Shown here: piece by piece, positions 7,071 through 11,396 of the stretch
How positions within the stretch are numbered: the first letter of the stretch is position 1
Layout: every line of letters starts with the position of its first letter
Assembly: GCA_041500865.1 (NCBI GenBank)
Contig: JBGQMY010000003.1
Span: 11,333 to 75,332, forward strand
Reading direction: 5' to 3'
From: Candidatus Micrarchaeia archaeon
Lineage (GTDB): Archaea; Micrarchaeota; Micrarchaeia; Anstonellales; J096
DNA length: 64,000 nucleotides
Position numbers and translations under genes: made by a program
Notes under the pieces: model-generated
What the model was told of the DNA's origin: nothing
The model's input: the letters and a program-made list of their open reading frames with translations, nothing else
The model's database searches: none

Positions 7071-8174
7071 TCATACGGCTAATTCCTTGGCAAATAGCCT
7101 ATTGAATCTTTCCACGACTCTTTTCCTGAAATTATAGCTATTTGCAAATCTGGCATAAGCAAGCCAGCCTTCCAGGCTTTTCACTATTTCTTCCCTGTTC
7201 ATCTCTCCTTTATCGCATTTCCGTTTGAACATGTCAAGGCGCTCCCAGATTCTTCTGGCATTGCTCTTCTTGAGAAGCCGGTACCCATGAAAAATCCTGA
7301 AGCCAAGAAATGCTATGCCCCGTTCCAATGGAATAATGCTGGACTTTTCAGGATGGAGCCTTATCTTGAGCCGGTATGCCAGAAACTCGCTTATTTCAGC
7401 GTTCCACATTTCAAGCATTTTCCTGTCCCTGTGCAGAATCACGAAATCATCCACATAGCGGATGTAATATCTGGCCCCAAGCCGCTCCTTTGCAAAATGG
7501 TCGAATCCGTTCAGGTATAGATTGGCAAAGAATTGCGAGGTCAGGTTTCCAAGGGGCATCCCTTTCCCATGAACTTCAGCTTTGTGGTTTGCCAATATCA
7601 TTCTTACCAATTGCATAATATCCGGATCCTTTATTTTACGGCTAATCATCTCCAATAGGATTTCATGTTCAACTGTCGCAAAATAATGCAGAATGTCCGC
7701 CTTGAGGGCATATCCGCAGCAAACGGATTCTTCATCGCTAGGCTCTTTTTCTGCTTTTGGCTTGCAGAAAGAGACCGCGCGCATGAACCGCTCCAGTCTC
7801 CGTATCGCATTATGCGTTCCCTTGCCTTTCCTGTTGGCAAATGAGTCAAAGATGAAATCCTTTTCAAAAATGGGCATTATGACGTTGCATAATGCATGGT
7901 GCACAACGCGGTCCCTGAAATGGGACGCGCTTATTTTTCTGGTCTTTGGGTCCCTTACGAGGAATACAGTTGGCGGGCGAGGCGAATAGGCAAATGCCTT
8001 CAGCTCGGATTCCAATTGCCTGAGATTATTTTCAAGATTGGATTCGAACTCAATTACATAATCCTTCAGCGTTTTCCTTTTTCTGGCTTTCTGAAATGCA
8101 AGCTTAAGGTTTTCATAGGAGCAAACCTGCGGATAAAGATGCCTGTAGGATTTCATGGGTTTCGCCAAGCGCAC
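7071..8174 (-). CDS. DGR-type reverse transcriptase
   Basis: PKTRKI, FRDRVVHHAL, RKGKGTH, ADILHYF, GMPLGNLTSQFFANLYL and YVDD motifs; directly downstream of a TR. Confidence 0.95.
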   Translation of the reverse strand: MRLAKPMKSYRHLYPQVCSYENLKLAFQKARKRKTLKDYVIEFESNLENNLRQLESELKAFAYSPRPPTVFLVRDPKTRKISASHFRDRVVHHALCNVIMPIFEKDFIFDSFANRKGKGTHNAIRRLERFMRAVSFCKPKAEKEPSDEESVCCGYALKADILHYFATVEHEILLEMISRKIKDPDIMQLVRMILANHKAEVHGKGMPLGNLTSQFFANLYLNGFDHFAKERLGARYYIRYVDDFVILHRDRKMLEMWNAEISEFLAYRLKIRLHPEKSSIIPLERGIAFLGFRIFHGYRLLKKSNARRIWERLDMFKRKCDKGEMNREEIVKSLEGWLAYARFANSYNFRKRVVERFNRLFAKELAV

Positions 8175-8185
8175 AGATAAATGCC

Positions 8186-8445
8186 CCTAGGGTGCAAGCC
8201 CAAGTCATTCCGAACGCATTGGACGGCCTGTAGTTCGCGTTGACGTTCTGCCTGTTGTTGCCGTTGTTGTTGACGTTGCGGACCAGAAGGCCTCAAGAGT
8301 AACCCGTCTGCCACAATGGCACTTTCGTGCCAACACCGCCGCTTCACGCTTTCAATCCATGATTTACTCAATGTCGCGGCTGAATCCCATGTCTGGCTTT
8401 AACCAGCACTGCAGACAGGTGTGTGGCCTAGGCTTGCACCCTAGG
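8186..8445 (-). ncRNA. Putative structured DGR template RNA containing the TR
   Basis: 15-bp inverted repeat 8186-8200/8431-8445, 10-bp helix 8302-8311/8411-8420, GAAA-tetraloop hairpin 8317-8332. Confidence 0.7.
8204..8292 (-). repeat. DGR template repeat (TR)
   Basis: 89 nt, nine AAC triplets; aligns without gaps to 8710-8798. Confidence 0.97.
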
Positions 8446-8471
8446 AATAGGGAAAAGGATGGAAAGCTTAT

Positions 8472-9383
8472 TTAAAGCGCTTTCCCTACCGCATCCAGGA
8501 ATTCCCTGATTGGCGCTACGATCTGGGCGTCGATTATGCCAGGCATCCTGCCAACAGCGCTTACAGCCCTATTATATGCGGCTTTCAGCTCATCAGCCGA
8601 GATGCCGGGCACTTTGATAATCGTCTCTTTTTCAGCCGGTTTTCCTGACTGAACATTAGAGGCAAGAAGCGCCTGGATTTTTTCGGTGTCCCCTTCGGGG
8701 ACTTCCAACGCCACCCCGAACGCACCGGACGGCCCGAAGTACGCGTAGACGCCCTGCCTGCCGTAGCCGAGGTCGTCGACGACGCGGACCAGAAGGCCCA
8801 CATATGAAGAACCATTCAGCCTCCAAAGATATCTTGCATCCGGGCTTTGCGGCACCTTGTCTCCATGCGGAACGCCTGTTTCCTTATGCGGCATGTACAA
8901 GCCATCAGGACCTGGGAATTCTGGAACCGGTATCAGCCTGTCTTTTGAAATGTCCAAAACCATTGAATCTCCGTCTTTCTGGAAATCTTTTGAGGTTAGA
9001 CCCAGTGCCACAAGCGCAACGTTCTTTTCGCCCTTATAATCCCCTGTTGTCGGCAAAACTATCCTTGAACCGTCTCCTGCGGAAAAGACTATCTCCTTTC
9101 CCAGTCTAACGCCTGGCTTTTCATAGGCGATTGAGGCGTCAACAGCGAAAGGCGTCATTGGAACCAAGCTTCTCCATGTCGCTCCAACGTTAAGCGCAAC
9201 ATCCGCTGTGTTATGGGATATGACTAGGCAATTGGTTCCATGCACATTGTTGAATTCCTCAACTAAAGGATGGGCATCAAAAAGCTTTGTTGTTCCGCTG
9301 TTCCTTAGAATCAGTATGTTCTTCTTTTGTCCGTTAGCCTCTAACTTTATCAGTTCCTTTCCAGCAATTTGGATTTGTGACAT
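8472..9383 (-). CDS. DGR target (variable) protein with internal VR
   Basis: Codons 196-225 (GLLVRVVDDLGYGRQGVYAYFGPSGAFGVA) are the VR. Confidence 0.92.
   Translation of the reverse strand: MSQIQIAGKELIKLEANGQKKNILILRNSGTTKLFDAHPLVEEFNNVHGTNCLVISHNTADVALNVGATWRSLVPMTPFAVDASIAYEKPGVRLGKEIVFSAGDGSRIVLPTTGDYKGEKNVALVALGLTSKDFQKDGDSMVLDISKDRLIPVPEFPGPDGLYMPHKETGVPHGDKVPQSPDARYLWRLNGSSYVGLLVRVVDDLGYGRQGVYAYFGPSGAFGVALEVPEGDTEKIQALLASNVQSGKPAEKETIIKVPGISADELKAAYNRAVSAVGRMPGIIDAQIVAPIREFLDAVGKAL
8688..8702 (-). promoter_or_regulatory. DGR target-recognition hairpin (GAA triloop)
   Basis: GTCCCC-GAA-GGGGAC, 7 nt downstream of the VR end. Confidence 0.8.
8710..8798 (-). repeat. DGR variable repeat (VR)
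   Basis: 20 mismatches to TR over 89 nt, all at TR adenines. Confidence 0.97.
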
Positions 9384-10820: not shown

Positions 10821-11396
10821 ATGGAACTCACGCTGATGCTTTTTTTGATTGCTGTAATCGTAATCAACGCCATCCCCGCATTCATGCCGCCAACGTGGGT
10901 ATTGCTGGCGTATTATTCCAGGGGCAGCGGCGTGGACCTGCTGGTGCTTGCCGTGCTTGGCGCAGTTTGCTCGACAATCGGCAGAATCGTGCTTGCCAAG
11001 TGGTCCGGCCCGGTCACGTACCGCTTCTTCAGCAAGTCCATGGCCAGAAACGCAGAATTCGCGCATGAAGAAGCGGCGAAGCATCCGGGCGCGGAATTCG
11101 TAAGCTCCTTTGTCTATGCCCTCAGCCCATTGCCGAGCAATACGGTATTCATCGTTACAGGCGCTGCAAATCTCAGGCTTCTTCCGATTGCAGGGGGCTT
11201 TTTTGCAGGGCGCGTAATCTCGTATTACCTGATTATGAATTTGGTGCGCTTTTCAATGTACCAGCTTGGTAGGATGTTTTCATTCTACGACCCTACCGCA
11301 TGGGTTCTGGACTTTCTCGGGATTGCGCTCTCCTTGCTGGTCTTCACAATAGACTGGAGGGGCCTGCTCCAGAGAAAACCCGGAAAAAAAGCTTGA
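10821..11396 (+). CDS. Membrane protein (DedA/VTT-like)
   Basis: Multiple TM segments; PAFMPPTW and SPLPSN re-entrant-type motifs. Confidence 0.6.
   Translation: MELTLMLFLIAVIVINAIPAFMPPTWVLLAYYSRGSGVDLLVLAVLGAVCSTIGRIVLAKWSGPVTYRFFSKSMARNAEFAHEEAAKHPGAEFVSSFVYALSPLPSNTVFIVTGAANLRLLPIAGGFFAGRVISYYLIMNLVRFSMYQLGRMFSFYDPTAWVLDFLGIALSLLVFTIDWRGLLQRKPGKKA

Follow-up and report, generated by a model that had tools for sequence, protein, structure and literature searches.

The minus strand of the 64,000-nucleotide (nt) stretch of DNA analysed here, hereafter the window (positions 11,333 to 75,332 of contig JBGQMY010000003.1, assembly GCA_041500865.1, from a Candidatus Micrarchaeia archaeon), carries a compact diversity-generating retroelement (DGR), in which a target gene (9383-8472), a 152-nt spacer, a template repeat (TR, 8292-8204) and a reverse transcriptase (RT) gene (8174 or 8156 to 7071) follow one another. 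The spacer is a member of the RT-16 RNA family, and its 5' end is complementary to the last bases of the TR and to the flank directly behind them. The resulting long-range helix, here called H0, is thermodynamically preferred in the window RNA, and its inner part covaries in related loci. A second helix, P2, joins the next stretch of the spacer to bases just upstream of the TR. We hold with moderate confidence that H0 and P2 form side by side in a single DGR RNA, with the whole TR looped out between them, as a permuted counterpart of the core of the DGR RNA of phage BPP-1. The function of H0 would then lie in the priming of complementary DNA (cDNA) synthesis, in the control of RT translation, or in both.

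Helix H0 and the RT-16 RNA

On the minus strand, H0 pairs 8445-8424 with 8186-8207, and its 22 positions comprise 19 Watson-Crick pairs, two G·U pairs and one C·A mismatch. An inverted-repeat search returned the same arms (8186-8207/8424-8445, 22 nt, 86% Watson-Crick). An earlier reading made from the letters alone (the sequence-only reading) had described a perfect 15-bp repeat at the outer end, and CCTAGGGTGCAAGCC (8445-8431) is indeed the exact reverse complement of GGCTTGCACCCTAGG (8200-8186); the four pairs it had added towards the TR (U8430·G8201, A8429-U8202, G8428·U8203 and G8427-C8204) are present as well. Beyond these the helix passes the C8426·A8205 mismatch and continues with C8425-G8206 and A8424-U8207, inside the TR. 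The 5' strand (8424-8445) takes in the whole sequence of the RT-16 P1 hairpin together with the linker bases C8426, C8425 and A8424, while the 3' strand (8186-8207) consists of the last four TR bases (U8207, G8206, A8205 and C8204) and 18 nt of flank. These TR bases are the end of GGAAUGAC, which resembles the template copy (IMH*) of the initiation of mutagenic homology (IMH) sequence. The clamp predicted from these pairs thus extends into GGAAU, the IMH*-like end of the TR, and terminates at an A shared by all loci used. By chance, a perfect 15-bp inverted repeat within 300 nt would be expected about 0.02 times per 64 kb (64000 x 300 / 4^15).

A linker of 3 nt (CAC: C8423, A8422 and C8421; 8421-8423) separates H0 from P2, the nested helix of the sequence-only reading, which had paired ACCTGTCTGC (8420-8411) with GCAGACGGGT (8311-8302); both strands are found at these coordinates, as are the two hairpins it had drawn, TGGCAC-GAAA-GTGCCA (8332-8317) and CTGGT-TAAA-GCCAG (8406-8393). 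The 5' strand of P2 (ACCUGUCUGC as RNA, 8411-8420) is supported by the minimum free energy (MFE) structure, the Rfam alignment, covariation and RNAalifold, and the 3' strand (GCAGACGGGU, 8302-8311) ends 9 nt before the homology between the TR and the variable repeat (VR) of the target gene begins. When 8455-8176 of the minus strand is folded, the MFE structure contains H0, P2, the UAAA hairpin and the GAAA hairpin, with -105.2 kcal/mol and z = -3.55, and none of 200 dinucleotide shuffles is as stable. The plus strand of the same region gives a weaker fold (-99.3 kcal/mol, z = -2.65, 2 of 200 shuffles as stable). In a 337-nt context the pair probability of H0 in the window RNA is 0.91, against 0.00 for local pairing of the same bases.

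The spacer (8445-8294, minus strand) matches Rfam RF03019, the RT-16 RNA, over the full model (positions 1-158 of 158) with 62.4 bits, above the gathering score of 50 (E = 1.8e-08). This is the single match to the family in its own genome, and between 6500 and 10000 no Rfam family besides RT-16 is found at E<=1. In the Rfam model the first 33 positions form a local hairpin, P1, which is followed by an unpaired CUACAC linker and then by P2. The model stops before the TR, and the strand of H0 that lies in the TR and its flank is outside it. P1 has 14 bp in the model; the window allows only 6-7 bp with a GCAA loop, which cmscan aligns with deletions (CCUAGG(G)U-GCAA-GCCUAGG with a GNRA loop, 8427-8445, model positions 1-33). 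The window P1 folds on itself through the CCUAGG palindrome, the 5' segment folded alone gives the P1 hairpin, and P1 covaries in relatives, for instance as CUAGAGU-GCAA-ACUCUAG in locus L003. Because both use the same bases, the local P1 fold and H0 are mutually exclusive, and the local fold competes with the clamp.

The two folds can be described with four segments. Segments a and a' are the 5' and 3' strands of the P1 base, a' having the linker's GGC(C/U)A as its end; b comprises the last TR bases and what follows them, and b' the remaining flank. Local folding pairs a with a' and, weakly, b with b', and long-range folding pairs a with b' and a' with b. A hairpin that extends P1 turns the long-range fold into a three-way junction in most relatives. 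H0 is one continuous helix in the window and its close kin, because P1 is short there and the flank matches its loop as well.

Inside P2 the RNA keeps the known RT-16 core. The hairpin CUGGU-UAAA-GCCAG (8393-8406), part of the MFE structure, comes directly after the P2 5' strand and is followed by an A-rich, conserved single strand, which reads AUGGGAUUCA here and has the family consensus AUGAAAUUCA. P4 (8338-8380) pairs GCCGC (8380-8376) with GCGGC (8342-8338) and encloses the conserved GACA...AGUA...GAA...UGAA core; RNAalifold pairs the corresponding columns, 181-185 with 290-294, with compensatory changes present. Both P4 and P2, the latter enclosing the GACA/AGUA/GAA/UGAA...GGUG core, keep their pairing with compensatory changes. 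The GNRA hairpin UGGCAC-GAAA-GUGCCA (8317-8332) is an insertion relative to the Rfam model, and Micrarchaeota relatives have covarying versions of it (GCCAC/GUGGC and GCCAU/AUGGC).

No RNA run was listed as containing 7900-8800, and five sediment DNA runs contain part of it. Contigs of four runs were compared with the region; one of these, from a related population (run X4), has substitutions in the 3' arm of H0 at 8190, 8197 and 8198, two of which would keep pairing as G·U. For the substitution at 8197, pairing would depend on a change at 8434; that position lies in the partner arm, beyond the end of the contig at 8292.

Covariation and pairing energies in related loci

Of 151 sampled genomes of the phylum, 19 have RT-16, 17 of them above the cut-off, which gave 23 loci; in 16 of the 23 an A-mutated TR/VR pair flanks the RNA, the TR starting 3-80 nt after RT-16. 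The RT protein of the window retrieved a further 80 metagenome loci (37-69% identity), and all of the 20 that were chosen from these for testing have RT-16 above the cut-off (68-107 bits). The flank directly after the TR is conserved in the relatives and complementary to their own P1, also where both sides differ from the window, as in L004 (UGUAGGCAAG/CUUGCCUACA) and L014 (UUGCAGGUUA/UAACCUGCAA).

In order to compare pairs in a fixed register, each locus was anchored by two patterns, C[CT]ACA... for the linker and AAT[AG][GA]... for the TR end, and pairs were numbered outward from the junction of linker and TR end (index k). Both patterns were located in 73 of 103 loci, 67 of them non-redundant, and the counts below refer to these 67 unless another set is named. 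The patterns missed or mislocated 30 of the 103 loci, owing to short upstream DNA, linkers of the form UUACA or UCACA, inserts between flank and RT gene, or the absence of RT-16 and TR upstream of the RT gene, as in L026, L027, L096 and L098. Also outside the set are L005, L017, L018 (TR not found), L048 (too little upstream DNA) and other excluded loci. Eight of 17 listed missed loci (sequence viewed for 11) could be re-anchored, giving a second set of 75 loci; L078, judged by eye and not counted, fits through the outer helix only.

The pair at k=-1, the linker A with the U of GGAAU, is A-U in 67/67 loci. At k=0 the pair is C-G in 35 and U-A in 32 loci, with none unpaired, and at k=1 it is C-G in 50. 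Pairing is kept in 65 loci at k=2, 66 at k=3 and all 67 at k=4, and then falls to 55 at k=5, where AU, UA and GC all occur, and to 50 at k=6. Over k=0-9 the paired fraction is 0.80, compared with 0.27-0.54 in shifted registers and 0.63 with non-cognate partners (maximum 0.67 in 2000 shuffles). Adding the re-anchored loci leaves k=0 paired in 74/75 and k=4 in 75/75 and brings in U-A or U·G at k=1 in three loci. In an alignment of the 67 sequences restricted to the inner 12-14 nt of each H0 strand (alignment A1), the inner H0 is 81.8% paired and nine of its 11 pairs change on both sides; for P2 97.6% of cells are paired and all ten pairs change on both sides, and the linker occupies columns 16-18, between the two helices. 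The whole structure is 89.3% paired, a value that shuffled partners do not reach (70.1%; 0/500) and that drops to 28-47% when the strands are slid.

Pairing energies agree with these counts. When the 5' segment is cofolded with its own flank, the mean gain is -10.7 kcal/mol, compared with -4.5 (standard deviation 3.4) for the flanks of other loci, and the cognate flank ranks among the top five for 44 of the loci (permutation p<=1e-4). The outer part of the helix taken alone gives -16.0 kcal/mol for cognate and -10.9 for non-cognate partners (p<=1e-4), and it is built from many unrelated sequences, among them GUCUUAG:CUAAGAC, GUCCUGACU:AGUCAGGAC and UUCCUAGCCAUA:UAUGGUUAGGA. When the full RNAs are folded singly, at least five of eight inner H0 pairs are in the MFE structure for 44/67 loci, and the inner H0 has a probability above 0.5 in 42. 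The proposal of the sequence-only reading that the upstream spacer clamps the TR 3' end within one RNA is thus borne out by covariation of the inner H0 in fixed register, by cognate pairing energies and by single-sequence folding.

That reading had also assigned the structure to the minus, RT-sense strand. At k=2-6, G·U occurs 53 times and A·C seven times, an excess that fits pairing in an RNA of this strand, and the plus strand folds less well. These two observations also bear on an explanation at the level of DNA, in which the inverted repeat would act as a cruciform or as a protein or recombination site bracketing RT-16 and the TR. As DNA, the 15-bp core forms a perfect palindrome pair, which contains CCTAGG, and Guo et al. 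are said to have reported in 2011 that DGR target recognition uses a DNA hairpin or cruciform after the VR. Nevertheless, a pairing kept on the RT-sense strand only, together with a three-way junction in most relatives that suits RNA folding and not a DNA cruciform, makes this explanation very improbable.

A second alternative dispenses with the long-range helix and sees P1 and the TR flank as two separate, similar hairpins, each complementary to itself. The one behind the target gene could, for instance, be a terminator or a protein site, and the one behind the TR a degenerate copy of the hairpin that follows the VR. P1 does covary as a local hairpin, both in the Rfam model and in relatives, several flanks can form weak hairpins alone, the local fold is favoured in 11/67 loci, and the flank sits where a hairpin with a GRA loop stands after the VR. 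Two similar hairpins, however, would not account for the P1 loop facing a complement of itself instead of a copy (GUGCAAG/CUUGCAC, with covarying versions in L004 and L014), nor for the pairs at k=-1 to 1, which join the linker to TR bases outside both hairpins and alternate at k=0 between C-G and U-A (35:32). The flanks alone mostly reach 0 to -8 kcal/mol, and pairing with the 5' segment gains a mean of 10.7 kcal/mol; the outer helices are often far longer than the local P1 base (9 bp vs 4 bp in L046). We therefore consider it quite unlikely that H0 is an illusion created by two hairpins.

Several observations weigh against H0 as a conserved helix or limit what the counts can say. The invariance of k=-1 holds by construction, because the patterns require both letters; they also require C at k=1 and AAU in the TR, so that near the junction only the C/U-G/A coupling at k=0 is free. 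At k=1, 17/67 loci, the window among them, have a C·A mismatch, at k=7-10 only 51-67% of the loci are paired, and L064, which the patterns had missed, has C·A at k=0 as the sole exception among the 75. The MFE structure lacks H0 in 23/67 loci, local pairing of the H0 bases dominates (P>0.5) in 11/67, and RNAalifold run on A1 predicts P2 and P4 and not H0. On the best tree of RT N-termini, 11 changes of the k=0 state are counted, too few of them being supported for a sign test, and only two independent pairs of changes lie on supported branches, which leaves the number of independent compensatory events uncertain. Since P1 is self-complementary and the flank partly resembles it, some of the complementarity between the arms could stem from two similar hairpins.

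A further question is whether H0 acts chiefly on translation of the RT gene. The sequence-only reading had let the structure finish 11 nt before the RT start codon, which is correct for the GTG at 8174. The RT N-terminus common to the relatives (M-K/E-S/T-Y) begins at the ATG at 8156, probably the actual start codon, and this ATG lies 29 nt past the 3' arm. In a translational switch the paired flank would occlude the ribosome-binding region and the local P1 fold, which exists as a competitor, would free it, an arrangement that could coexist with a role in priming. In 38 metagenome loci with a clear ATG, the distance from the end of the flank pairing to the start codon has a median of 6.5 nt (range -3 to 25), and 15 of the 38 have a Shine-Dalgarno (SD)-like 4-mer 4-18 nt upstream, inside the 3' strand of H0 in 14 of the 15. 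In the window, AGGGG (8188-8184) stands 9 nt before the GTG at 8174 and partly inside H0. On the other hand, the conserved ATG of the window is beyond H0 and not sequestered, 23 of the 38 loci have no SD-like motif in range, and the cofold count can include chance pairs. The best-kept and best-covarying pairs, moreover, occur where linker and TR end meet (k=-1 to 4) and not at the RT-proximal end; therefore placement of the template end fits better than occlusion of a start site, and a switch of translation is unlikely to be the main role of H0.

Likeness to phage and retron RNAs and a possible mechanism

DGRs are especially common in tiny archaea of the DPANN group and in bacteria of the candidate phyla radiation (CPR). 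To our knowledge, the sole mechanistic model of a DGR comes from one phage element, in which the scaffold lies downstream of the template. In the cryo-electron microscopy structure of the BPP-1 DGR RNA (avd-TR-Sp, Sp being the spacer), as given in the text of the preprint (Handa et al., bioRxiv 10.1101/2023.10.23.563531), the duplex TR117-129:Sp47-56 sits in the RT active site, Sp A56 primes and TR G117 is the first template base. After a 2-nt linker comes a second duplex, avd369-379:Sp59-70 (‘cPRT Stop’), just upstream of the TR, which is looped out between both duplexes. The Sp strand then continues with a stem-loop, unpaired adenosines, a long single strand and an RT-binding stem. For 207 of the 278 DGRs with Avd considered there, the same preprint reports putative duplexes between upstream and downstream sequence, with a mean length of 13 bp.

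In the RNA predicted here, as in that of the phage, two helices lie next to each other; one strand connects them by a linker of 2-3 nt, and from the other the whole TR is looped out. This places a template:primer-like duplex beside a second duplex, an arrangement that in our case is predicted from folding and covariation. The helix at the TR 3' end (a':b) has the polarity of primer and template and ends in an adenosine paired to U, the second helix (P2) is just upstream of the TR, and the bridging strand continues into a stem-loop, a conserved A-rich single strand and a longer stem, here P4. In contrast to BPP-1, the bridging strand and the scaffold precede the TR, and the RNA can for this reason be read as a circular permutation of the phage RNA. 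Only about 30-50 nt lie between TR and RT gene, and in the window there is no structured spacer between the TR end (8204) and the RT start (8174 or 8156). The phage stem-loop that binds Avd joins the template and primer strands, whereas here the junction is open and neither an Avd gene nor such a stem-loop was found. The first template base, predicted from sequence alone, would be adenine A8208 and not G.

We propose that the 3' untranslated region of the target gene, the TR and the short gap between TR and RT gene are read as one minus-strand DGR RNA. During its transcription the local P1 hairpin would form first and serve as a resting alternative to H0. Pairing of the RT-16 5' end (8445-8424) with the last four TR bases and the flank (8207-8186) would then produce H0, and P2, beginning 3 nt past H0 and having its other strand 9 nt upstream of the TR, would complete the pair of helices; because H0 and P2 bracket the TR ends, the TR would be looped out between them. 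H0 may present the IMH* end of the TR to a bound RT for cis-primed cDNA synthesis, and P2 may mark the end of the template. A8424, constant and paired to U8207 at the inner end of H0, occupies the position of Sp A56 and is by this analogy a candidate for the priming adenosine, in which case cDNA synthesis would start on A8208 of GGAAU.

The order of parts also recalls retrons. In these elements the terminal inverted repeats a1/a2 place the priming G. Retron loci are laid out as structured RNA, template and RT gene, with priming from the 2'-OH of a conserved G (PMC8867640). The RNA described here shares the order of structured RNA (msr), template (msd) and RT, and its 5' end likewise pairs just 3' of the template, with a conserved purine at the inner end of the stem. 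It differs in using as its template a DGR TR, to which a cognate VR inside a gene corresponds with A-specific differences (20/20), and in having an RT of DGR type; the constant base is A and not G, and no multicopy single-stranded DNA (msDNA) is known.

No match to Avd (PF05635) was obtained in the window's own genome, which is 92% complete and in which a divergent copy of this poorly conserved protein could escape a search, and none of the 11 open reading frames (ORFs) neighbouring the DGR has an Avd-type Pfam match. Two of five other RT-16 genomes (G122 and G068) have PF05635 matches, which are 13 kb away from the RT-16 loci or on other contigs. Wu et al. 2018 (PMC5758913) report Avd in 74% of DGRs; for the quarter or so that lack it an Avd-independent mechanism is, according to that paper, suspected but not yet described. 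For the DGRs of Nanoarchaeota (DUSEL4), Paul et al. 2015 (PMC4372165) give an IMH of TGGGGT against an IMH* of TGGAAT and a GRA-loop hairpin after the VR, and mention candidate Avd-sized ORFs between RT and target. The IMH/IMH* pair and a GRA-loop hairpin inside the target gene are both present here. In contrast, no credible Avd-sized ORF lies between RT and target, and neither a structured RNA upstream of the TR nor pairing of such an RNA with IMH* is described in the accessible part of that paper (Paul et al. 2015).

RT-16 itself was described by Weinberg et al. 2017 (NAR 45:10811, PMC5737381) among the motifs RT-1 to RT-19 found near RT genes, of which RT-10 is in the BPP-1 DGR; the authors consider that other RT motifs may work in DGRs, and the main text has no discussion of RT-16 (the supplement may say more). 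The window RNA resembles the family in matching the full model above the gathering score, in the covariation of P2 and P4 and in adjoining an RT gene, and departs from it in pairing its 5' end with the TR flank where the model has only the local P1 and an unpaired linker. The RT-16 motif and the clamping of a DGR template by upstream and downstream RNA are thus already known. A literature search found no account of H0 supplying the strand that RT-16 lacks, of the helix extending into IMH*, of the constant adenosine or of a permuted, retron-like layout lacking Avd, the supplement of Weinberg 2017 and Paul et al. 2017 being outside the search; RT-16 combined with RT terms returned only unrelated papers, and ‘cPRT Stop’ only the Handa preprint.

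All of these proposals can be joined into one picture, which we offer tentatively and regard as rather doubtful in its entirety: an Avd-independent, self-contained DGR RNA made of RT-16, TR and flank, a permutation of the BPP-1 RNA with the order of a retron, which would prime in cis at A8424, start on the IMH* adenines, stop at P2 and switch between RT translation and template use through P1 and H0. Should H0 and P2 correspond in function to the phage duplexes, the geometry of the DGR core would be older and more portable than its linear order, DGR RNAs would be linked to retron RNAs in layout, and the orphan RT-16 motif of Rfam would gain a role and a missing strand. The analysis further provides the parts for an attempt at in vitro reconstitution, namely one RT gene and a compact RNA of about 260-300 nt in which base pairs and an adenosine are named.

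The DGR cassette and its variation among relatives

The target gene (8472-9383, minus strand) encodes 303 aa, carries the VR and has no Pfam match. The VR (8710-8798) is a direct repeat of the TR and ends in GGGGUGGC where the TR has GGAAUGAC; directly 3' of it stands the hairpin GUCCCC-GAA-GGGGAC with a GRA trinucleotide loop (8688-8702). The TR (8204-8292), found by a direct-repeat search, has 89 nt with 27 adenines. All 20 differences between TR and VR are at TR adenines, and the TR adjoins the RT gene. A TR/VR pair of this kind next to an RT gene, an IMH/IMH* pair (TGGGGT/TGGAAT) and a hairpin after the VR are the marks of a DGR. The RT ORF (7071-8174, minus strand) encodes a protein whose sole Pfam domain is RVT_1 (E = 3.1e-17). 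An ORF of 72 aa (8153-8371, minus strand) with a TTG start and a Q/R-rich frame runs through part of RT-16 and all of the TR and is probably spurious, because the region is a covarying RNA.

The contig of the related population from run X4 (depth 2.8) differs from the window in the VR by 14 listed substitutions, 12 of them at TR-adenine positions, which suggests, on thin data, ongoing or recent A-directed diversification between populations. Compared over 8655-8796 of the window, it also has a 3-nt insertion at 8782 in the VR.

The RT-16 family appears to extend beyond archaea. On one metagenome contig a bacterial small signal recognition particle (SRP) RNA (L042:2713-2806) adjoins an RT-16 DGR, and judging from this neighbour the family spans bacteria, probably of the CPR, as well as DPANN archaea. 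The cassette itself also varies: in L026, RT-16 (2901-2732) is downstream of the RT gene and antisense to it, and in L028/L032, L049, L066 and L087 the TR has an extra AAAUUU...AAACGA segment, an insertion of 30-40 nt near its 3' end.

In 14 of the 67 non-redundant RT-16 loci the RT gene contains a homopolymer or an AG repeat between F(L/M)RKVS and GY(A/V)LKADI, about 420-460 nt after the TR end; the RT gene of the window has no such tract. Examples are G9-G12 (L009, L011, L012, L008, L006, L013, L014 and L102), C9-C10 (L019 and L023) and (AG)6-7 (L003, L022 and L029). The reading frame breaks at the tract, leaving a first ORF of <200 aa, in 13 of the 14 tract loci, as against 3 of the 53 tract-free loci, and past the tract the frame is +1 in some loci and -1 in others. 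Although assembly errors at homopolymers could also produce it, the pattern suggests slipped-strand on/off switching of the DGR RT, or else slippage during its transcription.

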